A program made the position numbers and the translations under genes. A stretch of 24,000 nt of DNA. It comes from an uncultured Prevotellaceae bacterium (GTDB taxonomy: Bacteria; Bacteroidota; Bacteroidia; Bacteroidales; Muribaculaceae). Shown here piece after piece: positions 6,987-24,000 of this stretch; within the stretch, counting starts at the first letter, position 1, and each line of letters starts with the position of its first letter. The notes under the pieces are model-generated. The model did no database searches and was not told where the DNA came from. It saw only the letters and a program-made list of their open reading frames with translations. Location: assembly GCA_946186575.1 (NCBI GenBank), contig CAMHNO010000002.1, forward strand, positions 126,664 to 150,663, written 5' to 3'.

Positions 6987-7736
6987 TTACAAGGCTTGGC
7001 GTGTACCTTGGCAATTGGGATAATCCGAGCAACCCCAAAATTGCTTGCCAACTTTAGTGCCACGTTTTATAGTGCGTTTAATCATAGGCTTGCCACATAG
7101 TGGACACTGTGGTGACCCTTGCTCAACAGATTGCAGGGTTTGCGCCGCCAGTCGTTCTTTGCTCAAGCCCTCAGTAAATCCACCATTGAGCTTAAAGTCA
7201 TCAAGCTGCCGCAACATCATCTTCTGCAACATGGTGATGTTGCGGTTTATTAGCTGCATGATTGAATTTACACACACAACCTGATTATCGCTTTCTACCC
7301 ATGGTGCAAAGCGCTTGCGTTGTGACTGCACATGCACCCATGCATCGTGCTCAATATCACGGCCATAATGAGGTTGTTCAAGTTGAATGCTTTGAAAAGC
7401 CCGGTAATTCTCGCTATCTCTTGTCCAAGGCTCTATATTGTAAGTGAGAGAAAAAGCCATGTAATCACTTAGCAATTCGCTCAAGGTTGCTCTTGCCACG
7501 TCAGTGAGCCGCATCTCAGTCTCTCGACTGGTCTGACGGCGCGAACTTCCCTCAGCAATATTGGCATGTGCACTTCGCGCGGCCATTACCATTTGGTCAT
7601 AAAGGCGCCCATGTGGGTCGTTGTCTTTGTTGAGATAACGATGGCAAAAACTAATGGTTGCCTGGTGGATTATGTGCGACATCACCCATGCATCAAGGTA
7701 ATAATAGCCCTTGATGGATTTAATATCAACAGCCAC
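6987..7736 (-). CDS. Four-helix-bundle protein (23S rRNA IVS protein / Avd-like family) with suffix domain and C-terminal topoisomerase-type C4 zinc ribbon
   Basis: Family signature DQMVMAARSAHANIAEGSSRRQTSRETEMRLTDVARATLSELLSDY. The middle region ends in NGGFTEGLSKERL (suffix-domain-like). The C-terminus CPLCGKPMIKRTIKRGTKVGKQFWGCSDYPNCQGT matches the Topo I C4 finger pattern. The start is a GTG at 7736. An ATG at 7682 is an alternative. Confidence 0.85.
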   Translation of the reverse strand: MAVDIKSIKGYYYLDAWVMSHIIHQATISFCHRYLNKDNDPHGRLYDQMVMAARSAHANIAEGSSRRQTSRETEMRLTDVARATLSELLSDYMAFSLTYNIEPWTRDSENYRAFQSIQLEQPHYGRDIEHDAWVHVQSQRKRFAPWVESDNQVVCVNSIMQLINRNITMLQKMMLRQLDDFKLNGGFTEGLSKERLAAQTLQSVEQGSPQCPLCGKPMIKRTIKRGTKVGKQFWGCSDYPNCQGTRQAL

Positions 7737-7782
7737 TATTTTTGTTACTATTTTATTGTTGTTTTTGTTATTTTTACGATAG

Positions 7783-7852
7783 TCGATTGTTCGATTATTC
7801 GATTGTTCGATTATTCGATTGTTCGATTATTCGAGTGTTCGAGCATTCGAGG
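7783..7852. repeat. Octamer tandem array: (TCGATTGT TCGATTAT)x3, then TCGAGTGT TCGAGCAT TCGAGG
   Basis: Read directly from the sequence. There are 8.75 units with a TCGA core every 8 bp. The array fills most of the space between the pyrH stop (7869) and the four-helix-bundle gene start (7736). Confidence 0.95.
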
Positions 7853-7868
7853 TTTTTGGGGAGGTTTG

Positions 7869-8582
7869 TTAAGGCGTCACCACGGTGCCTATGGGCTCGC
7901 CAGTGATCACCTTCTTGAGGTTGCCCACCACGTCCATGTTGAACACATGTATGGGCAGGTTGTTCTCCTTTGCCATCACAGTGGCAGTCATGTCCATCAC
8001 CTTGAGGCCGCGCGCAATAATCTCGTCGTAGGTGATGGTGTCGAACTTCGTAGCCGTGGGATCCTTCTCGGGGTCGGCAGTGTAGATGCCGTCCACACGA
8101 GTGCCCTTGAGCATGACATCGGCCTCAACCTCAATGCCGCGCAGGGTGCTGCCGGTGTCGGTGGTGAAGAAGGGGTTGCCAGTGCCGCACGACATGATGG
8201 CCACCTTGCCCTGGTTCATTGCGTCGATGGCGCGCCACTTGGTGTAATGCTCGCCCACTGGAGTCATGGCAATAGCGGTGAACACCTGTGCTGGCTGACC
8301 CTTGGCCTCGAGGGCCGACGAGAGAGCGAGCGAGTTGATAACTGTGGCAAGCATGCCCATTTGGTCGCCCTTCACGCGGTCGAAGCCACTGGCAGCTCCT
8401 GCCAGACCGCGAAAGATGTTGCCGCCGCCAATCACGATTGCCACCTGAACACCAGCTTCAACTATCTCCTTGATTTGAGTGGCATAGTCGTCGACGCGCT
8501 TTGGGTCGATGCCGTAGCCTTGTGCTCCCATCAGCGACTCGCCGCTGAGCTTGAGCAAAATGCGCTTGTATTTCGTTTCCAT
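7869..8582 (-). CDS. pyrH: UMP kinase
   Basis: METKYKRILLKLSGESLMG..., 237 aa, with a typical PyrH amino-acid kinase fold sequence throughout. Confidence 0.95.
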   Translation of the reverse strand: METKYKRILLKLSGESLMGAQGYGIDPKRVDDYATQIKEIVEAGVQVAIVIGGGNIFRGLAGAASGFDRVKGDQMGMLATVINSLALSSALEAKGQPAQVFTAIAMTPVGEHYTKWRAIDAMNQGKVAIMSCGTGNPFFTTDTGSTLRGIEVEADVMLKGTRVDGIYTADPEKDPTATKFDTITYDEIIARGLKVMDMTATVMAKENNLPIHVFNMDVVGNLKKVITGEPIGTVVTP

Positions 8583-9692: not shown

Positions 9693-10901
9693 ATGTCGAA
9701 TAGCAAATTCAATAGAATAGAGTACTTGATATATGCAATATTATTGCTCATCATACTGCTGGGACCAACGCTGAGTACCCTGTTTCACGGCCACGAGGTC
9801 GAAGATGTGACTTTTCTAAAAAACGACCTGTGGCGCACATTCAAGGCTATAATAGTCTATGTCATAGCTCTCGCAATTCACGATGTGTGGATCGCGCCGC
9901 TGCTGGTATACAAGCACAAGCCTTGGCATTACATACTGGGAGTGGTGGTGCTGGGAGCTGTGTTCATGGTATACAAGTTCAACACAAGGCCAGCCGACGC
10001 GCCACCACCAGCAATCGTATTACAAGACAAGAGTCATGACGCTGCGGCTAAGCCTGCAGGGCCACCGGCATTGCCGCCCATGCAAGCCAAAAATGGAAAA
10101 ATCGACCGCGACCCCATCACGCCACCACCATTCCGCCGACACGACATTGTGGCCATTATAATGTTTATCTTCGGCATTGGCACCAACATTGGCATCAAGT
10201 TCTATTTCTACGCCATTGGGGCCAGGCGGCAGATGGAAAATCTCGAGAAAGAGAACCTCAAGCAGAGCCTTGAGCAGCTGCGATACCAGCTGCACCCACA
10301 CTTCTTCATGAACACGCTCAACAACATACACGCGCTGGTCGACATCGACCCAAAGAAGGCTCAAGAGTGCATCATCGACCTGTCGAAACTCATGCGTTAT
10401 GTGCTCTACGACAGCAATCATGACTATGTGCAGGCCTCACGCGAAATGGAGTTCATGGCCAACTATGTGAGCCTCACGCGCATACGCTACAGCGACAAGC
10501 TCAAGTTCACCGTCAATACGCCCGACGACGGCACACATGTGTGGATTCCACCACTGCTCTTCATCTCGTTTGTGGAGAATGCCTTCAAGCACGGGGTGAG
10601 CTTCAGCCAGGAGTCTTACATCACCATTGGCGGCAAAATCTATAATGACGACAATGGCGAGCCACGCATGTACTGGACTTGCCTCAACAGCAAGCGCACC
10701 ACCGGAGGCAACACAGGCAAGAAGAAGGTGAGCGAGGCAAGCGGCATAGGTCTTGCCAACGTGCGCCAGCGCCTTGACCTGATGTTCGGCAAGAACTACA
10801 GCCTCACCATCACCGATGGCGACCAGGAATTCCTCGTTGAAATGGACATCCCTGTCAAGACAAGCGACCCCACACTGCCAAGTGATGACAATAAAAAATA
10901 G
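9693..10901 (+). CDS. Sensor histidine kinase, LytS/YehU type
   Basis: N-terminal TM helices and a Pro/Ala-rich linker, followed by the His_kinase signature LRYQLHPHFFMNTLNNIHALV and an ATPase region (FVENAFKHG, GIGLANVRQRL). Confidence 0.9.
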   Translation: MSNSKFNRIEYLIYAILLLIILLGPTLSTLFHGHEVEDVTFLKNDLWRTFKAIIVYVIALAIHDVWIAPLLVYKHKPWHYILGVVVLGAVFMVYKFNTRPADAPPPAIVLQDKSHDAAAKPAGPPALPPMQAKNGKIDRDPITPPPFRRHDIVAIIMFIFGIGTNIGIKFYFYAIGARRQMENLEKENLKQSLEQLRYQLHPHFFMNTLNNIHALVDIDPKKAQECIIDLSKLMRYVLYDSNHDYVQASREMEFMANYVSLTRIRYSDKLKFTVNTPDDGTHVWIPPLLFISFVENAFKHGVSFSQESYITIGGKIYNDDNGEPRMYWTCLNSKRTTGGNTGKKKVSEASGIGLANVRQRLDLMFGKNYSLTITDGDQEFLVEMDIPVKTSDPTLPSDDNKK

Positions 10902-10967
10902 TTCGTTAAATGATAAAATTATATTGTAACACACCTAAACATATTAACAGATTAACATTCCTATGAT

Positions 10968-11693
10968 ATGATACGATGCATGATTATCGACGATGAGCCA
11001 CTGGCTCTGCAGCAAATGGAAGGCTACGTCAAGAAAATTCCCTATCTCGAACTGGTGGCAGCTTGTCACACAGCCATCGAAGCACATGAAATATTAGAAA
11101 ACGACAAGATTGATGCCATATTTTGCGACATCAACTTGCCAGAGCTCAACGGACTCGACTTCGTGAAGTCGCTCGAAAACCCTCCAATGGTGGTCTTCAC
11201 AACGGCCTACAGCGAGTATGCAGTCGAGGGATTCCAACTCAATGCCATCGACTATCTGCTCAAGCCATTTGGATTCGACGACATGAAGCGAGCAAGCGAC
11301 AAAATCAAAGCACGCTTCGACGCCTTGCGCACCCTGCAAGAAGTGAGCCAAATCGACGAGGACGACGCCATCTTCTTAAAGACAGAGTACAAAATTGTGC
11401 GCATCAACATTGGCGATATCCACTATGTTGAAGCCATGAGCGAGTATCTGCGCATCTACCTCACTGGCAACCCCAAGCCTGTGATTGTGCTGCTGAGCAT
11501 GAAGAAGATGGAAGAGAGACTTCCAAGCCGTAGCTTCATGAGAGTGCATCGCTCCTACATCATCAACCTCAAGAAAATCAAGGAAGTGAGCAAGAGCCGC
11601 ATCATGCTTGTCGACGATGTGGAAATCCCCATTGGCGATAGCTATCGCGACCAGTTCAACGCCTACATCAACAGTAAGTTCCTCACCAAGTGA
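10968..11693 (+). CDS. LytTR-family response regulator
   Basis: Receiver domain (MIIDDEPLAL, DAIFCDINLPELNG, DYLLKPF) plus a LytTR DNA-binding domain (IHYVEAMSEYLRIYL, FMRVHRSYIINLKKI). It follows the kinase by 66 bp. Confidence 0.92.
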   Translation: MIRCMIIDDEPLALQQMEGYVKKIPYLELVAACHTAIEAHEILENDKIDAIFCDINLPELNGLDFVKSLENPPMVVFTTAYSEYAVEGFQLNAIDYLLKPFGFDDMKRASDKIKARFDALRTLQEVSQIDEDDAIFLKTEYKIVRINIGDIHYVEAMSEYLRIYLTGNPKPVIVLLSMKKMEERLPSRSFMRVHRSYIINLKKIKEVSKSRIMLVDDVEIPIGDSYRDQFNAYINSKFLTK

Positions 11694-16040: not shown

Positions 16041-16955
16041 ATGATAGTTCCGCCTTTTCTTCAACCTGGCGACGGCGTAGCAATAATTTCGCCATCAGGT
16101 ACGGTACTGAGCGAGCGCGTGGATGGAGCCATTCAAGCCTTTGAGCAGTGGGGATTTGTGCCACTGCTGGGAAAACATGCACGAGACGAATATCACCTCT
16201 ATGAGGTCGTCACTCACAGCGCACCCTGGCAGCACCGCCTCGACGACCTGCGGTGGGCACTGCGCAATCCTCAGGTCAAGGCCATCTTGTGCAGCCGTGG
16301 CGGATTTGGTGCAGTGCACCTGCTCGAGCATCTCGACACAGACTACATCGCAAGCAACCCCAAGTGGATTGCTGGCTTCAGCGACATCTCGGCGCTGCAT
16401 GCCGCATGGCATCGCGCTGGTGTGGTGAGCATACATTCGTCAATGGCAAAGCACCTGTGGCTTAATGGCACCAGCGACCCACTCAGCCGCATCTGCTATG
16501 ACATCGTGACACGGGGCAAGCTGCCTCACTACCAGGTTCTCCCCCACCCTCACAACCGCTGTGGCACCGCCACGGCCACCATCACCGGAGGCAACCTGGC
16601 CGTGCTCATGGGGCTGCTGGCAACTCCATTCAACCTCATAAAGCCAGGCAACATCATCTTCATCGAGGACGTGGCCGAGCAAGTCTATCAAGTGCAACGG
16701 CAGCTATATCACCTGCGGCTGGCAGGCATCCTGCCGCAGCTCGCAGGACTCATCGTGGGTCAGTTCACCAAGCATCGTGGCGACGACACCACAGCCATGC
16801 ACGACATGATTGCCGACATGGTAGCACCCTACTCCTACCCCGTAGCGTTCAACTTCCCAATAGGCCACATCGTCCGCAACATCCCCATCGTGGAGGGCGC
16901 CATGGCAACATTAAACGTGAGCGACGCTGGAGCATCACTCACGTTCAATCTATAA
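16041..16955 (+). CDS. ldcA: LD-carboxypeptidase (peptidase S66, muramoyltetrapeptide carboxypeptidase-like)
   Basis: PGDGVAIISPSG, RGGFGAVHLL and GFSDISALH (nucleophile Ser context), with a C-terminal FPIGH block. Confidence 0.85.
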   Translation: MIVPPFLQPGDGVAIISPSGTVLSERVDGAIQAFEQWGFVPLLGKHARDEYHLYEVVTHSAPWQHRLDDLRWALRNPQVKAILCSRGGFGAVHLLEHLDTDYIASNPKWIAGFSDISALHAAWHRAGVVSIHSSMAKHLWLNGTSDPLSRICYDIVTRGKLPHYQVLPHPHNRCGTATATITGGNLAVLMGLLATPFNLIKPGNIIFIEDVAEQVYQVQRQLYHLRLAGILPQLAGLIVGQFTKHRGDDTTAMHDMIADMVAPYSYPVAFNFPIGHIVRNIPIVEGAMATLNVSDAGASLTFNL

Positions 16956-16997: not shown

Positions 16998-17114
16998 TTA
17001 GAATTTATAGCTTGCTCCTACCGAGCCCAATGTCATAGCATTGATGTTCTTCTTGATTGTGAAGGCATTAAGTCCAACCTCGGCACTCACTGCCCAGTGA
17101 CGGGGTTTATAATC
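16998..17114 (-). pseudogene. Relic of the C-terminal strands of an outer-membrane beta-barrel gene
   Basis: Minus-strand translation DYKPRHWAVSAEVGLNAFTIKKNINAMTLGSVGASYKF* has the alternating pattern and terminal aromatic (YKF) of OMP C-termini. It is bounded upstream by an in-frame TGA and has no N-terminal part. Confidence 0.35.
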
Positions 17115-17232
17115 TCACAGGACTAACTAAAATTTTTTATGGTACAAAGGTATAAACAATTTGCTAATCCACAAATCATTAAAAATTATTAATTTTGATA
17201 GGGATGGAAAGAGGGTGCCAAACCATGCACTT

Positions 17233-17937
17233 TCACCGCACCACGGGCCACGCAAAGGTTTTGAGTTTCTTCTCAAGCTCTCGCTCGCGGCCCATCAGGT
17301 AGGTGTCGACGAGGGCATGAAACTGAGGCGAGTGGTTCATGTGAGTGAGATGGGCAAGCTCATGGCACACAATAAGTTCTATCAAGTCCGACGGCAAGAA
17401 CACTAGATTCTCCGAGAGCTGTATCACTCTGCCTGGAGTGCAGTGCCCCAACTTGCGCAACCCGCGCCCCATCTCAAAGCGTGTGGGAGCCACACCCACC
17501 CGCCGGGTGATGCTGCGGGCAAGCGGTAGCAGCACCTGAGCAGCACGGTCGTGAGCCACAACCTTTAGGGCCTTTGATATCCATTCCTTTGTTGCGAGAT
17601 TGTCGAGGTCGATGCCTCGGGGCACACTCACCACCACGTTGCTCTCGCCATGCGAGAAGATAATCTGGTTGGGCAAGCGGTCTTGCTCGGCAAGGCTGAT
17701 GGTAAAACCATAGCACTGAATCACTTGCCCCAATCTATAGGCGAGTGAGTCCTTGCCACGGGCTTTGCGCAGCTTGGGGCGCATGTCGTCAAGCACACGC
17801 TCAATGTCGGCACGCGACACACCCTCGGGCACCCTCATGCACAGGGTACCGCCCTTCCAGCGCATGGTCATGTTGCGCATGTTGCGCCGCACAGTGAGCA
17901 ACACCCTGCCAAATTCCTTATCTTCGATATAATACAC
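17233..17937 (-). CDS. M48/DUF45 (YgjP-like, SprT-like) metal-dependent hydrolase
   Basis: HEXXH in LIVCHELAHLTHMNHSPQFHALV. The N-terminus YIEDKEFGRVLLTVRRNMRNMTMRWKGG fits the family. The only possible full-length start is a GTG at 17937, because an in-frame TAA lies at 17941-17943. Confidence 0.85.
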   Translation of the reverse strand: MYYIEDKEFGRVLLTVRRNMRNMTMRWKGGTLCMRVPEGVSRADIERVLDDMRPKLRKARGKDSLAYRLGQVIQCYGFTISLAEQDRLPNQIIFSHGESNVVVSVPRGIDLDNLATKEWISKALKVVAHDRAAQVLLPLARSITRRVGVAPTRFEMGRGLRKLGHCTPGRVIQLSENLVFLPSDLIELIVCHELAHLTHMNHSPQFHALVDTYLMGRERELEKKLKTFAWPVVR

Positions 17938-17940
17938 TTT

Positions 17941-18150
17941 TTAAGTGTAAAGTGTTAAGTGTTAAGTAGTAAGTAGCAAGTAGCAAGTAGCAAGTAGTAA
18001 GGAGTAAGGAGCAAGTAGCAAGTAGCAAGTAGTAAGGAGTAAGGAGTAAGGAGTAAGGAGTAAGTAGCAAGTAGTAAGTAGCAAGTAGTAAGTAGTAAGT
18101 AGTAAGTAGTAAGTAGCAAGTAGTAAGGAGTAAGGAGTAAGGAGTAAGGA
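17941..18150. repeat. Heptamer tandem array, 30 units (4 head units TTAAGTG-like, then GTAAGTA / GCAAGTA / GTAAGGA)
   Basis: Parsed unit by unit from the sequence with no phase breaks over 210 bp. The plus strand carries TAA/TAG in all frames. The minus strand has no stop in any frame. Confidence 0.97.
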
Positions 18151-18180
18151 GAATTGGTCGCATGAAGACCGCTTGCGGCC

Positions 18181-18264
18181 TTACTTAACACTTACTTCAT
18201 ACTTCATACTTCTTCCTTCTTCCTTCTTACTTCTTACTTCTTACTTCATACTTCTTCCTTCTTA
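18181..18264. repeat. Heptamer tandem array, 12 units (CTTCTTA / CTTCATA / CTTCTTC), inverted relative to 17941-18150
   Basis: The reverse complements GTAAGAA / GTATGAA / GGAAGAA are 5-6 of 7 identical to the left-array units. An exact 13-bp inverted repeat TAAGTGTTAAGTA occurs at 17956-17968 and 18182-18194. The last unit contains the radical SAM stop codon. Confidence 0.95.
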
Positions 18265-19044
18265 GCCCGTCACTTGCACTGTAATGCCAGTTTCGCTCTC
18301 GATGTGGCGAGCTATGCGCTTGAGGTCCTCGACAGGCACTTTCACCAGCTTTTGCTCGGGAGTCTTGCGGTCGATGGTGTAGAGCATGATCTCACGGGGT
18401 TTGATGGCAAGATAGGCATTGATCAGGGCATCGATCTCGGCATCGGTGGTGTTGTCCACTATCTCACCGTCGTGCTCGCCGCGCACCATCATGGTCTGCA
18501 CTATGCACTTGCCGCCATAGGCTTTCAAGTCCTCGATAATGCCATCGGGAAGCACGTTGGGCGACACTGGTCGGTTTATCAGCCTCATCGTGCGAGCCAC
18601 TGCACTGTCGAGCTTGAGAATGTTATTGTCCACTTGCTTCAGAGCCGCCATCACGCTGGGCTTGCCTGCCATTGTGGCATTGCTCAGCACGCTCACTTTG
18701 GCCTCGGGATAGTACTGGTTGCGCAGGTTCACCACGTCGTGAACTATCTCCTTGAAATTGGGGTGCAACGTGGGCTCGCCGTTGCCCGAGAATGTGATCA
18801 CGTCGAGCGCCTGCCCTGCTTCCTTCATAGCCTGTAGTTTATTCTTGAGGGCTCGCCTCACCTCCTCGCGCTTCGACACGCCAGTGGTGCCAGGCCCCTG
18901 GGCATTATAGCCTGCCTCACAGTAGAGGCAATCGAAGGAGCAAATCTTGCCATCGTTAGGCATCAAGTTGACGCCCAACGAGGTTCCCAGCCTGCGGCTG
19001 TGGATGGGACCGAATATTGTACTTGTGAATAAAACTGTTTGCAT
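18262..19044 (-). CDS. Radical SAM protein (small, no SPASM-type extra Cys clusters)
   Basis: CSFDCLYC (CX3CX2C) near the N-terminus, preceded by FGPIHSRRLGTSLGVNL, and GNGEPTLHP. 260 aa. Confidence 0.88.
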   Translation of the reverse strand: MQTVLFTSTIFGPIHSRRLGTSLGVNLMPNDGKICSFDCLYCEAGYNAQGPGTTGVSKREEVRRALKNKLQAMKEAGQALDVITFSGNGEPTLHPNFKEIVHDVVNLRNQYYPEAKVSVLSNATMAGKPSVMAALKQVDNNILKLDSAVARTMRLINRPVSPNVLPDGIIEDLKAYGGKCIVQTMMVRGEHDGEIVDNTTDAEIDALINAYLAIKPREIMLYTIDRKTPEQKLVKVPVEDLKRIARHIESETGITVQVTG

Positions 19045-19071
19045 GATTATCTATTTTTATATTTTATACAT

Positions 19072-19902
19072 TTATCTAACAACTCGGGTGAATACAGGCA
19101 GTTTGCCGTTTGCCACTGTTACATAGATTTTTATTGTTATTCCTGAGAAGGAGTTTTTTTCTGGTCTTAAATCACTAACAGAAAGCATGTCTACGGCAGT
19201 ATACAAGTATTCTATGCCATAAGGAATGCTGCGTGTTGCCACTTCCACTGCCTTGGCTTTAATCATGGGATAATTGCCAACAGCTGCGTCAAAAATTTTC
19301 GCTTCAGCATCATTCACAGCATGTGGTTTTGAGAACTCTGGGAGCTTAACGTATGGTCCTTCAATAAACCCACTTTCTTTCAAAAACTGGTCAACCTCCT
19401 CAGGCATAGCATCCATGCGGGCAGCACGCACTCCATAGCCGTCAAGAATCTTTGTTTTAGGCTGAGCATGGGCAAGGTTGGCAGCACTCGACTCCAGGCC
19501 TCCGCTGCCAAAGGTGCAGAATGGAACAATAGTCTTGCCACTCAGGTCCACTTTGTTGAGCAGCGTGGCAATGGGTGGAGCATAGGTTCCATACCAAATG
19601 GGATAACCCAGAAATATAACGTCATACTTGGCAACATCAACCTTCAGAGGCTTGATTTCGGGCGTGATTCCTTGCTCACGCTCTTTCTTGCTGCGCTCAA
19701 TGGTTGCCTTGTAATCTCCGTCATAGGGGGTTACAAGCGCTATTTCCTCAATGTCGGCTCCAAGCTTGGTGGCAATTTCCTCGGCCACTGCCTTGGTATT
19801 CGACGTCTGCGAATAATAAAGCACAAGAGGCTTTTGTGCATTTACATTGATTCCACACATTAAAGCCATAGCTGTTACCATTATCCATTTAAAGAAATTC
19901 AT
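19072..19902 (-). CDS. Exported flavodoxin-like protein with an extra C-terminal domain of about 90 aa
   Basis: Signal peptide MNFFKWIMVTAMALMCGINVNAQ. Flavodoxin-like core LVLYYSQTSNTKAVAEEIA, YDVIFLGYPIWYG, IVPFCTFGSGG. The C-terminal third has no family I can name. Confidence 0.8.
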   Translation of the reverse strand: MNFFKWIMVTAMALMCGINVNAQKPLVLYYSQTSNTKAVAEEIATKLGADIEEIALVTPYDGDYKATIERSKKEREQGITPEIKPLKVDVAKYDVIFLGYPIWYGTYAPPIATLLNKVDLSGKTIVPFCTFGSGGLESSAANLAHAQPKTKILDGYGVRAARMDAMPEEVDQFLKESGFIEGPYVKLPEFSKPHAVNDAEAKIFDAAVGNYPMIKAKAVEVATRSIPYGIEYLYTAVDMLSVSDLRPEKNSFSGITIKIYVTVANGKLPVFTRVVR

Positions 19903-21798: not shown

Positions 21799-22455
21799 CT
21801 ATTTCCTCCCGAAGTCGGCCGGAATCTCGCCCCACTTGTCGGTCTGCCATTTGTAGATGGGGTTCTCTGTGTTGTGGGTCTGCAGCCAGTACTCGGCGCG
21901 AGCCACAATGTCGAGCAGTTGTGAGTTCTTCTGGGTGCGCTCAAGCTTGGTGCCGCACTTGCGCTTGCGCACCCATATCTGTGCCGTGCGGCTGTCGCTG
22001 TAGATGGCGGTGGTGCTGTCGCCACGATTGTAGAGCATCGCCAGCGCATGAACGATGGCAAGAAACTCGCCTATGTTGTTAGTGCCCTCGGCAAATGGTC
22101 CCTGATGAAAAATCTGAGCTCCGGTGTACACGTCCACGCCCCTGTATTCCATCACACCGGGATTCTTGCTGCAGGCAGCGTCCACAGCCCAGCTGCCAGG
22201 AATTATTTCGGGAATGAGTGTGTAGTCCACCTCGTCTTTACGGCGAGGGGCGCTGGCAATGGCACGAAGCACGTTGCGCGCCTCTTCATCATAGCCGTTG
22301 CGCCACGCCTCGATGGCATCTTGCTGGTTGTCGAAGCTCTTGTAGCGAGCGCCAGGGTAGCCCTTGGTGCGCAACTGGCACTCGACCCAAGTGTCGCACA
22401 CACCTGGCTCGGTGCCTACCCACACCACATACCACTTTCTCTTGTTACTCGACAT
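21799..22455 (-). CDS. Ribonuclease H1 with N-terminal hybrid-binding (caulimovirus VI / viroplasmin-like) domain
   Basis: N-terminal WYVVWVGTEPGVCDTWVECQLRTKGYPGARYKSF, then an RNase H core WAVDAACSKNPGVMEYRGV, NNIGEFLAIVHAL, IYSDSRTA. The true start is MSSNKRK at 22455. The 431-aa track ORF is an artefact that extends antisense through aroK. Confidence 0.88.
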   Translation of the reverse strand: MSSNKRKWYVVWVGTEPGVCDTWVECQLRTKGYPGARYKSFDNQQDAIEAWRNGYDEEARNVLRAIASAPRRKDEVDYTLIPEIIPGSWAVDAACSKNPGVMEYRGVDVYTGAQIFHQGPFAEGTNNIGEFLAIVHALAMLYNRGDSTTAIYSDSRTAQIWVRKRKCGTKLERTQKNSQLLDIVARAEYWLQTHNTENPIYKWQTDKWGEIPADFGRK

Positions 22456-22478
22456 ATTTTTCTCATTTTTTTCTTTTG

Positions 22479-22486
22479 CAAAGGTA
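22479..22486 (-). promoter_or_regulatory. -7 promoter box TACCTTTG (minus strand)
   Basis: Plus-strand CAAAGGTA, 24 bp upstream of the ATG at 22455. It is the same octamer as the box at 3740-3747. Confidence 0.45.
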
Positions 22487-22572
22487 AAAAAACTGTGACA
22501 AATATGCAAAATCATTATTGATGACCTTAATTTTTGTTTGTTAAAACAATAAAAATCGCTAACTTCGTGGCG

Positions 22573-23115
22573 ATGAAACCAATTTTCTTGATAGGATACA
22601 TGGGATGCGGCAAGACCACACTGGGCAAACCGCTTGCCAACCTGCTGGGGTGGCGCTTTGTCGACCTCGACATCTACATCGAGCAGCAGTGCGGCATGAC
22701 CGCCAAGCAGGTTTTCACCACTCACGGCGAGGCCCACTTCCGCAAGCTGGAGCGGGAGGCGCTCGAACAAGTTGTAGCAATGGGAGGCAACACAATAGTG
22801 GCATGTGGCGGAGGCACTCCGCTGCAGCCTGGCAACATGGAGCTCATGAACCGAGTGGGCATCACCGTGTGGCTGCAGACCAGCGTCGAACGCATAGCAT
22901 CGCGCCTGGTGCTCCCCGACCAACGCAGCAAGCGCCCACTGCTTAGCCACATGAGCGACGAGCAGATAAAGCAATCGGTAATCGACGGCATAGAGGCGCG
23001 CTCGCCATTCTACGAGCAGGCTCAGCTGCGCTTCGACTCCACACACCTTGAGAGCGAGGATCAAATAGCTGCTACCGCCCGCCGGCTTGCCCAACTATTA
23101 ACTATTAACTATTAA
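22573..23115 (+). CDS. aroK: Shikimate kinase
   Basis: MKPIFLIGYMGCGKTTLGKPLA (P-loop), FRKLEREAL, VACGGG. The ATG at 22573 is preferred over the upstream track start. Confidence 0.92.
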   Translation: MKPIFLIGYMGCGKTTLGKPLANLLGWRFVDLDIYIEQQCGMTAKQVFTTHGEAHFRKLEREALEQVVAMGGNTIVACGGGTPLQPGNMELMNRVGITVWLQTSVERIASRLVLPDQRSKRPLLSHMSDEQIKQSVIDGIEARSPFYEQAQLRFDSTHLESEDQIAATARRLAQLLTINY

Positions 23116-23136
23116 CTCTTAACTCTTATCTAACAT
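23095..23136. repeat. Heptamer tandem array CTATTAA x3, CTCTTAA, CTCTTAT, then a degenerate CTAACAT
   Basis: Read directly from the sequence. The array begins inside the last codons of aroK and supplies its stop codon (TAA at 23113-23115). Confidence 0.9.
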
Positions 23137-23200: not shown

Positions 23201-24000
23201 TCACGTTACTCCCCCCAACGGGCTCACTTCTTTTCTTCTCGCGGCTTGCCTCTTGTTGATCAGGTGTGAAATCAGCAGTGCGAAAGCGATGAACAAGGCT
23301 TCCCACATCAAATCGGTGAGCAAGCGGTTAGTGATATAGTTCCAATTGCCCATGTCGGAGGCCACAATGTAGCCTATCACGAAGACGACAATCCCCGTCA
23401 TCTCATATCCTACCGCTATCACTGTCACAACGCGCCACATGGTGCCCCAAACGCTGTAGCCAAAAATTTGATAATAGGTTCGGTAAATCACTATCACTAT
23501 GATAATGTAGACGATGGTGTTAATCACAATGTCGGTGGTCTCCTGGCTGATTGATGAGGTGTCGGTGATTAGGTCAAGTACCCAGGTTAATATTTTGACA
23601 AGCATCAAGACGATGAGCACCTGCATGCTGTTAAACACCTGGATGAAGAAACCCTGTGGCAAGTTGTGGCGGGCACAACGGGGAGAGTAGCGAAACACAA
23701 CCCATGTGGGCACAATAAGAAATGAAGTGTACACAAGCAATGCCCAGTCGAAATGCCTTAAAGCCCAGTTATAGAACAAATTGAGGTTGTAGTTTATCAT
23801 CGACTCAACATCGCCTGGCTTGGCAGAAGCCACCGAGGTGCTATCACCAAAGTCAATCAGGTTGTAAATCAGCAGTGCCGCAACCGACAGTATCACCAGC
23901 ATCTTCACTGGAGGGAAACTAATCTGGCGGCGGCCGCTGATGTAGGCGGCAATCAGGTGCCCTGGCATGAGCATGAGCTGCCACAGCGTCAGCGGCAGCG
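23201..24000 (-). CDS. DUF3667-family membrane protein, C-terminal part (ORF continues past the right edge)
   Basis: The frame stays open upstream of the track Met (LPLTLWQL-MLMPGHLIAAYISGRRQISFPPVKML). This block aligns with WRPGYMIRDYLNGHHLSYFPPFKML of the 992-1891 paralogue. It has multiple TM helices. Confidence 0.85.
   Translation of the reverse strand, partial: LPLTLWQLMLMPGHLIAAYISGRRQISFPPVKMLVILSVAALLIYNLIDFGDSTSVASAKPGDVESMINYNLNLFYNWALRHFDWALLVYTSFLIVPTWVVFRYSPRCARHNLPQGFFIQVFNSMQVLIVLMLVKILTWVLDLITDTSSISQETTDIVINTIVYIIIVIVIYRTYYQIFGYSVWGTMWRVVTVIAVGYEMTGIVVFVIGYIVASDMGNWNYITNRLLTDLMWEALFIAFALLISHLINKRQAARRKEVSPLGGVT

Follow-up and report, generated by a model that had tools for sequence, protein, structure and literature searches.

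Repeat-driven variation is regarded as a speciality of pathogens, and invertases are thought to be dominant in gut Bacteroidales. Among the long simple sequence repeats of bacteria, heptamers have been named as the commonest class (Mrazek et al. 2007, as cited in PMC4679880). Intergenic heptamer arrays have been described in Bacteroidetes, cyanobacteria and Beggiatoaceae (MacGregor 2015, PMC4679880); those of Bacteroidetes include long arrays without counterpart in close relatives, and a single indirect repeat was reported among 170 sets. The unit TAACTGA recurs at many loci, in most cases a short way ahead of a start codon, and a protein-binding role has been proposed for it (PMC4679880). In Haemophilus influenzae, the 5′-UTR of hmw1A and hmw2A carries an (ATCTTTC)n repeat whose RNA forms a hairpin that RNase III cleaves; repeat length sets expression, which is inversely related to repeat number (PMC12721329). 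In Vibrio cholerae, the TTTTGAT heptads of the ctxAB promoter have a strain-dependent copy number and bind transcriptional regulators (bioRxiv 10.1101/2021.05.14.444153). A literature search for tandem repeats in Muribaculaceae returned no report.

The locus described here lies in a 24-kb stretch of DNA (the window, to which all positions refer) from a gut Muribaculaceae bacterium, placed in this family by the source names of its rSAM homologues. It is the 324-base spacer between a radical SAM (rSAM) gene and a YgjP-like gene, and it is filled by two oppositely oriented heptamer microsatellites with a small hairpin between them. The rSAM gene (260 aa; ORF and PF04055, E=3e-12) occupies 18262..19044 of the minus strand, and the gene for a YgjP-like (DUF45, WLM-like) metallohydrolase (PF01863, E=2e-23) occupies 17233..17937 of the same strand. 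The GTG start of the latter (17935-17937) is backed by the N-terminus MYYIEDxEFG, which is conserved in relatives. An NCBIfam search on the two flanking genes returned no specific family. By their arrangement the two genes, both on the minus strand, are judged to form an operon, because in most of the sister lineages examined they are separated by a mere 20-40 nt; the missing promoter or leader, presented as a puzzle in the earlier note on this DNA, finds its explanation here.

The layout of the arrays was read from the window sequence, with Tandem Repeats Finder and a unit-by-unit parse. On the gene strand, the order is the rSAM stop, 12 purine-rich heptamers, a 30-nt core, 30 pyrimidine-rich heptamers, AAA and the GTG start. 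The first heptamer opens with the stop codon TAA (18262-18264), and the GTG start is 3 nt from the nearest unit. Tandem Repeats Finder reported two period-7 arrays, one with a score of 246 (26.6 copies, 91% match) and one with a score of 106 (10.6 copies). On the plus strand, 17941-18150 comprises 30 in-phase heptamers, namely GTAAGGA (C, ten copies), GCAAGTA (B, nine copies), GTAAGTA (A, seven copies) and four TTAAGTG-like units (TTAAGTG twice, TAAAGTG and TTAAGTA), while 18181-18264 comprises 12, namely TTACTTA, ACACTTA and then CTTCATA, CTTCTTC or CTTCTTA. Right-arm units, once reverse-complemented, are identical to left-arm units at 5-6 of 7 positions. Every detail of this layout that was checked against the earlier note (the 30 and 12 heptamers, core, block order, stop and start positions and 13-bp repeat) proved correct.

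Read along the gene strand (minus), the 5′ arm consists of ten purine-rich heptamers, TAAGAAG, GAAGAAG or TATGAAG (18195..18264), as given by the sequence, Tandem Repeats Finder and the unit parse. It is followed by two boundary units, TAAGTGT and TAAGTAA (18181..18194), which hold the left copy of a 13-bp inverted repeat (18182-18194) and are invariant between strains. The unique 30-nt core, GGCCGCAAGCGGTCTTCATGCGACCAATTC (GAATTGGTCGCATGAAGACCGCTTGCGGCC on the plus strand), spans 18151..18180, and its first 14 nt on the gene strand (18167-18180) are predicted to fold into a tetraloop hairpin that is rich in GC (-6.4 kcal/mol). The main 3′ arm (17969..18150) has 26 pyrimidine-rich, G-poor heptamers in homogeneous blocks (TCCTTAC ten times, TACTTGC nine times, TACTTAC seven times), and such blocks (CCCC, BBB, AAAA) are typical of slippage. 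Four terminal units, TACTTAA, CACTTAA, CACTTTA and CACTTAA (17941..17968), hold the right copy of the 13-bp repeat (17956-17968). The two copies match exactly and lie 213 nt apart; from the unit order on the gene strand it follows that they enclose the core together with the main 3′ array. In minimum-energy structures only, a 7-bp hairpin (ACACUUU/AAAGUGU, 17934..17955, minus strand) is predicted which would take in the GTG start of the YgjP-like gene.

The strands differ strongly in stop codons, as had been noticed before: each plus-strand frame contains 13-14 stops, and the minus strand has none in any frame over the array of about 210 nt. An ORF that begins at an ATG in the core crosses the whole stop-free array and ends 20 nt inside the YgjP-like gene in the window; in L001, a contig with one unit more, it ends 17 nt upstream of the YgjP start. 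A coding reading of the stop-free minus strand was rejected, given that strains differ in 7-nt steps and that the frame and end of this ORF shift between the window and L001.

The same element was fetched from the assemblies of other samples through exact-protein look-ups, and an array with the same boundaries and core was found in independent assemblies (L001/L004, L002, L003, L005 and L006). The rSAM or YgjP proteins of all contigs with the element are identical to those of the window, and among these contigs the number and order of units vary in both arms, in 7-nt steps; exact unit counts are uncertain, all assemblies being apparently short-read. In L001/L004, a 61.9-kb contig, the 5′ arm is the same as in the window and the 3′ arm has 31 units against 30, a BA pair having been gained and one C unit lost (CCCCBAAAABABABACCCBBB... 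in L001, CCCCBAAAABABACCCCBBB... in the window). L002 and L003 are 1-kb contigs that end within the array; their 5′ arm has 11 units in a different order, with the new unit TAAGAGG, their 3′ arms contain the new unit TCCTTGC, and the two contigs are unlike each other. The L005 and L006 contigs start within the array. The four terminal units (17941..17968) are identical in L001, L005 and L006, the core is identical in L001-L003, and both 13-mers are likewise invariant among the contigs compared.

Because five independent metagenome contigs reproduce the array, an assembly artefact, which the earlier note had allowed for, is ruled out; the distinct unit variants of L002 and L003 cannot be artefacts of this kind, though their counts may be off. 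Identical flanking proteins beside different arrays mean that the array evolves much faster than its flanks, and does so in whole-unit steps. Two proposals made from the window sequence, a variable array length and an origin at the level of DNA rather than of coding sequence, were thus borne out.

In these respects the locus resembles the repeats described by Mrazek and MacGregor: tens of copies of intergenic tandem 7-nt units reach the stop and start codons, strains differ by 7-nt-step indels, the closest relatives have short array-free spacers, and assemblies break in the arrays. As in long simple sequence repeats, its length is beyond chance, whole units are polymorphic between strains (in apparently short-read assemblies) and the sequence is non-coding. 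The element is a real and extreme case of a known kind of bacterial repeat, and no evidence points to a dedicated switch. It differs from the MacGregor arrays in that its unit is not TAACTGA, in that two inverted arrays of complementary composition surround a hairpin core, and in its host, a gut member of the Muribaculaceae.

Orthologous spacers were retrieved via homologues of the rSAM protein. In sister lineages, whose rSAM proteins are 85-91% identical, the spacers are different and measure 20-116 nt or more, and all except those of L149 and L151 (rSAM 86% and 88%), from which repeats are absent, contain short repeats that begin at the rSAM stop codon. In L007, L008, L011, L144 and L018 (rSAM 85-91%) there are 20-40 nt with one to five TAGTTCA-type heptamers followed by TTTTTTGGGG(A/G)TG, and L007 and L011 have the same rSAM protein and a different number of these units. 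L014 and L145 (rSAM 86-87%) have seven xxAGTTx units. In L150 (rSAM 90%), which is without long arrays, TAAGTTT TAAGTGT TAAGTAG stands directly after the stop and includes the left 13-mer of the window; a GC hairpin, GCGCCTGCGGCGC, and other 8-mer and 7-mer repeats follow. In L245 and L246 (rSAM 89%), (TAAGTGT/TAAGTTT)x10, a 12-nt core and (YTTCCAC)x5 lead to a gene for an S66 peptidase instead of YgjP, and the boundary-unit family of the window (TAAGTGT) is thus expanded in L245. As the spacers differ by lineage, the site downstream of rSAM is a repeat hot spot that has been filled in different ways. The boundary units TAAGTGT and CACTTAA, common to the window and its sisters, suggest an ancestral stem-loop; a hypothetical one, in which two complementary 13-mers flank the GC hairpin, folds at -19.9 kcal/mol.

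On this basis we favour, with some confidence, the reading that the spacer is a lineage-specific, fast-evolving compound pair of heptanucleotide microsatellites that grew by slippage from a 3′-end stem-loop, and that any regulatory effect is at most graded and incidental. The ancestral rSAM 3′ spacer would have contained a small stem-loop, with TAAGTGTTAAGTA before a GC-rich hairpin and TACTTAACACTTA after it. Slippage during replication, in steps of 7 nt, would then have expanded one array out of each stem arm, with (KAWGAAG)n arising in the gap from the stop codon to the left arm and (TMCTTRC)n in that from the core to the right arm, and the stop and start codons would be the only array boundaries policed by selection. 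Growth from both stem arms would make the arrays mutually inverted, only 6/7 complementary and ending exactly at the stop and start codons, and would give this inverted relationship without selection for pairing. The spacer would be transcribed within the rSAM-YgjP operon mRNA, where the 84-nt purine arm may base-pair with a stretch of the 210-nt pyrimidine arm in a duplex capped by the core hairpin, leaving about 18 units as an unstructured, G-poor leader before the YgjP start. Expression might be affected through an extended leader, through double-stranded RNA that serves as a substrate or through a stem-loop at the 3′ end of the rSAM cistron, and any such effect would be a graded by-product of array length and not an on/off switch. 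From its lack of conservation alone we infer that the array may be neutral.

The folding results agree with the earlier suggestion that the two arms can form a long imperfect hairpin, and with the expectation that the plus strand folds better. The natural spacer is predicted to fold at -83.0 kcal/mol (z = -4.4) as gene-strand RNA, at -100.6 kcal/mol (z = -4.9) as plus-strand RNA and at -39.3 kcal/mol (z = -4.1) with the gene strand as single-stranded DNA. Each arm alone is unstructured (0.0 kcal/mol for the 5′ arm, -3.7 kcal/mol for the 3′ arm), and the fold is abolished (-23.6 kcal/mol) when the 5′ arm is swapped for its own reverse complement. Against shuffled-unit controls, which the earlier note had named as the comparison to make, the natural order does not stand out: permuting the units within each arm gave -78.6 +/- 3.0 kcal/mol, with 9 of 150 permutations as good as the natural fold. 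Scrambling the 5′-arm units internally gave -69.1 +/- 13.8 kcal/mol, with 26 of 150 as good. Selection for pairing was rejected on these grounds, since neither permutation singles out the natural arrangement. Every unit pair keeps one fixed mismatch, and the variant units TATGAAG and TACTTGC are without a complementary partner. The predicted hairpin potential is real; its source is the opposition of a purine-rich and a pyrimidine-rich arm rather than any tuning of the arrangement. A DNA cruciform, the other structure proposed for the arms, is unlikely because of the fixed mismatch per unit, the unpartnered variants and the lack of any sign of pairing selection.

The main rival to the slippage reading is an RNA rheostat of the hmw type, in which RNase III would cleave the long imperfect hairpin and array length would tune YgjP relative to rSAM. 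It is modelled on the Haemophilus hmw repeat, the best-studied functional analogue of the element, and we consider it rather unlikely. Both loci have a pyrimidine-rich heptamer repeat before a start codon (PMC12721329), a purine-rich partner, a predicted long imperfect hairpin and natural variation in length, and here the arm-arm duplex reaches -67 kcal/mol across about 80 nt in silico, so that a repeat would pair with a complementary region into a long hairpin as in hmw. The small heptamer hairpins of related, inverted design that adjoin stop codons in many phyla also speak for it. In hmw, however, the repeat pairs with an invariant G-rich sequence, the gene has its own promoter upstream and encodes a surface adhesin, whereas here both arms are repeats, the element sits within an operon before a putative hydrolase gene, and the hairpin is a predicted one. 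The rheostat is further weakened by the lack of any sign of pairing selection and the fixed mismatch in each unit, by close sister lineages that are without the element, and by a downstream YgjP-like hydrolase for which variable expression offers no evident benefit. If the arm-arm hairpin were processed or modulated downstream translation, it would extend the hmw mechanism, a recent discovery, to commensals, and tuning by stem length would give a gut commensal of the Bacteroidales a repeat-driven rheostat.

Inverted heptamer pairs of smaller size occur widely outside this phylum and are enriched between convergent genes. A metagenome scan with the pattern of two units, 10-40 nt and two inverted units found 93 inverted-pair loci, with a median arm of 4 units and a median core of 18 nt, and their arms frequently overlap stop codons. 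By crude ORF calls, 29 of the 61 classifiable loci lie between convergent genes, compared with a baseline of 19% in the same loci (p about 1e-6), and only 5 of the 61 between divergent genes. This enrichment at 3′ ends and between convergent genes could mean function rather than tolerance. A broader proposal is that inverted heptamer-array hairpins form a widespread, self-expanding class of 3′-end stem-loops, tuned by slippage or by an RNA- and RNase III-dependent process of the hmw kind, in which the window would have an extreme member whose stem length sets the rSAM:YgjP expression ratio, and which would include cassettes where such inverted arrays flank 23S-rRNA-IVS-protein genes; we consider this unlikely. 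The unit itself is not diagnostic, because (GYAAGKA)x4 is found in at least 120 loci of many phyla, where arrays of four or more units reach up to 33 units. An inverted partner lies at most 500 nt away in 10 of 121 such arrays, and a truly separate direct partner in only about three.

The enrichment between convergent genes, together with the GC-rich core hairpin just past the stop region and the analogous hairpin of L150, is what speaks for a terminator or insulator that would end or attenuate transcription past rSAM and uncouple YgjP, an explanation raised in the earlier note and one that we consider less likely than the rheostat. An intrinsic terminator scan of 17000-19300 returned 0 terminator-like sites, since none of the stems has a U-tract behind it; downstream of the core hairpin comes UUCAUGCG, so that the combination of a GC-rich stem and a U-tract is absent there. 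In an Rfam scan of 17000-19200 (E<=1), the only matches were to miRNA precursors or similar families, at 16-26 bits against gathering thresholds of 39-86 bits. Efficient termination would also leave YgjP unexpressed. The sole sigma-70-like match near the gene (17958-17929) overlaps its start codon, so that no usable promoter was found by the scan, whose sigma-70 consensus does not cover promoters of the Bacteroidota type. The 20-40 nt between rSAM and YgjP in most of the sister lineages examined point in the same direction. With REP-like elements and intrinsic terminators the spacer shares a position directly after a stop codon, hairpin potential and, for the small heptamer pairs, the enrichment between convergent genes; it differs from them in its AT-rich stem of tandem units without a U-tract, and neither a transposase associated with it nor a dispersed family with a common sequence was seen. 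In the window, a search with 25 nt of the core (<=3 mismatches) matched the core itself only, and a 24-nt part, GCCGCAAGCGGTCTTCATGCGACC, had 0 matches in JGI metagenomes; because the core is single-copy in the one and its 24-nt part absent from the other, a dispersed element was rejected.

That the heptamers are tandem sites to which a protein such as S1, a Csp-like or a nucleoid protein binds, on RNA or DNA, is distinctly improbable. In its favour, the arrays directly precede start codons, as described in PMC4679880, and the same unit families recur across loci and genomes of the clade: NAGTTNN units occur at 23091-23125 in the window and in the rSAM spacers of relatives, and TCGAWYNN units at 7779-7850 in the window and in L150. 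Such recurrence hints that some sequence-specific force beyond random slippage may be at work. Yet the unit of the orthologous spacer is not conserved (TAGTTCA, TAAGTGT and TMCTTRC in different lineages), the GYAAGKA family is found at this locus only within the window, and no candidate binding protein was identified. The element also departs from the TAACTGA network: the units here are TMCTTRC and KAWGAAG, and only the position next to a start codon is common to both. The ctxAB heptads are likewise tandem heptamers upstream of a gene whose copy number differs between strains; unlike here, where no promoter or binding protein was identified, those repeats are regulator sites in a promoter.

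Two further spacers between co-directional genes of the window are filled with repeats, one with 8-mers (7779-7850) and one with heptamers (23091-23132). With these two, and with heptamer arrays known from Bacteroidetes (PMC4679880), the view that repeat-filled spacers are unusual for Bacteroidales did not hold. In this Muribaculaceae lineage, hypervariable 7-8-nt repeats occupy operon spacers, with three such spacers in a stretch of 24 kb. Arrays like that of the rSAM-YgjP spacer break short-read assemblies and could serve as strain markers.

A classical contingency locus, where the number of units would shift promoter spacing or the frame of the core-ATG ORF and so switch YgjP on or off, is very improbable. 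The core ATG does open an ORF across the array, with an end point that differs between the window and L001. This ATG sits in the GC hairpin, however, and the peptide is a low-complexity repeat artefact; the array lies outside both ORFs, the sole sigma-70-like match overlaps the YgjP start, no promoter was identified, a YgjP-like hydrolase belongs to a gene class atypical for phase variation, and it is hard to see how 7 nt more or less in a 324-nt spacer would act in a binary way. The weakest alternative, with a negligible probability, is a MITE-like element bounded by 13-bp terminal inverted repeats, or else an assembly artefact: the exact repeat with copies 213 nt apart would fit the former, but no target-site duplication or flanking direct repeat surrounds the element, its core has the single-copy distribution given above and the left 13-mer already stands at the homologous site in the element-free L150, and the latter is contradicted by five independent assemblies that agree on boundaries and core. 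Taken as a whole, the reading in the earlier note keeps its DNA-level origin, hairpin potential and length variation, and its terminator, switch and cruciform come out weakened.

The interest of the locus lies mainly in strain-level hypervariability in a gut commensal and in the recurrent architecture of inverted pairs. An IVS-like cassette was also considered for the window and rejected, since its core is 30 nt long without an ORF and a tblastn search of the window with two IVP proteins found nothing. Elsewhere, heptamer arrays adjoin a 23S_rRNA_IVP gene in 4 of 120 foreign loci, and inverted arrays flank the gene in three of these four.

The gene for the YgjP-like (DUF45) metallohydrolase was absent from a lineage with 89% radical SAM identity to the window (sister loci L245 and L246). 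In these loci a 116-nt repeat spacer (L245 849-964; L246 901-1016), composed of (TAAGTGT)x10, a core and (YTTCCAC)x5, runs directly into an S66 LD-carboxypeptidase gene; in the window this gene is encoded at 16041-16955, past YgjP and in the opposite orientation. The sister loci L007, L014 and L018 also differ from one another in the genes downstream of YgjP. This variation in downstream genes, together with the absence of YgjP from L245 and L246, indicates that the repeat hot spot coincides with a synteny breakpoint.

In the sister lineages a homopolymer G tract of variable length between contigs was observed immediately 5′ of the YgjP GTG start (about 3305-3318 in L007). It consists of five G in L007 versus seven at the same site in L008, L009, L010 and L012, the radical SAM protein being identical among these five loci. 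With this G tract, the YgjP start codon has a further type of slippage-prone sequence beside it.

Repeats also occur in other spacers of the window. The spacer at 7737-7868, between the co-directional minus-strand ORFs 8582..7869 and 7736..6987, harbors an 8-nt tandem array (7779-7850) that reads TCGAATGC TCGAACAC TCGAATAA TCGAACAA... on the gene strand, with approximately 8.5 copies and a super-period of 16 nt. Its TCGAWYNN unit family is also present downstream of the radical SAM gene in a sister lineage (L150 1039-1070). A heptamer array at 23091-23132 (TAAGAGT x2 and TAATAGT x3 on the gene strand) is located between the minus-strand ORFs 23974..23201 and 23094..21799, directly upstream of the latter. 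This array belongs to the NAGTTNN unit family, which also fills the radical SAM-YgjP spacer in sister lineages (L007 3281-3315, L014 3290-3331 and further sister loci), so that members of one unit family turn up at different loci and in different genomes. Finally, a small 8-nt repeat, AACAGATT, occurs in 2.5 copies at 10938-10957. The spacer that contains it is 66 nt long and separates two co-directional ORFs of the plus strand, 9693..10901 and 10968..11693.

GTAAGGA blocks are found in the window (17997-18010, 18032-18059 and 18123-18150) as well as in the foreign loci L071, L082 and L090. In another phase, (GTAAGGA)n reads as (TAAGGAG)n, which we take to be the Shine-Dalgarno sequence in its canonical consensus form. 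The complementary CTCCTTA presumably resembles the 3′ tail of 16S rRNA. In the window the mRNA strand carries the anti-Shine-Dalgarno-like version of these blocks. As Shine-Dalgarno pairing is largely unused by Bacteroidota, the relevance of this likeness here is doubtful.

Tight inverted pairs, in which a short core separates (GTAAGKA)n from (TMCTTAC)n, are widespread: a scan of JGI metagenomes, which took inverted pairs only, found 93 loci (L152-L244), and further pairs were present in the foreign loci L082 (1621-1731) and L133 (6963-7083). The median arm has four units and the median core 18 nt, and the arms often overlap stop codons. Based on crude ORF calls, 61 pairs could be classified by their neighboring genes: 29 are located between convergent genes, compared to a baseline of 19%, and only five between divergent genes.

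At four foreign loci (L028 6277-6723; L083 6436-6909; L090 2948-3408; L071 3095-3498), whose hosts (Elusimicrobiota, Daejeonella, Planctomycetota) belong to unrelated phyla, a 23S_rRNA_IVP/four-helix-bundle gene of about 120 aa is flanked by heptamer arrays of the GTAAGKA type. Two of these genes, those of L090 and L028, were scanned and matched PF05635 with E=1e-35 to 2e-39. A literature search on heptamer arrays flanking 23S_rRNA_IVP genes found no paper. The flanking arrays form an inverted pair in three of the four loci, an arrangement reminiscent of rRNA intervening sequences, in that the flanks would make up the stem and the ORF would lie in the loop.
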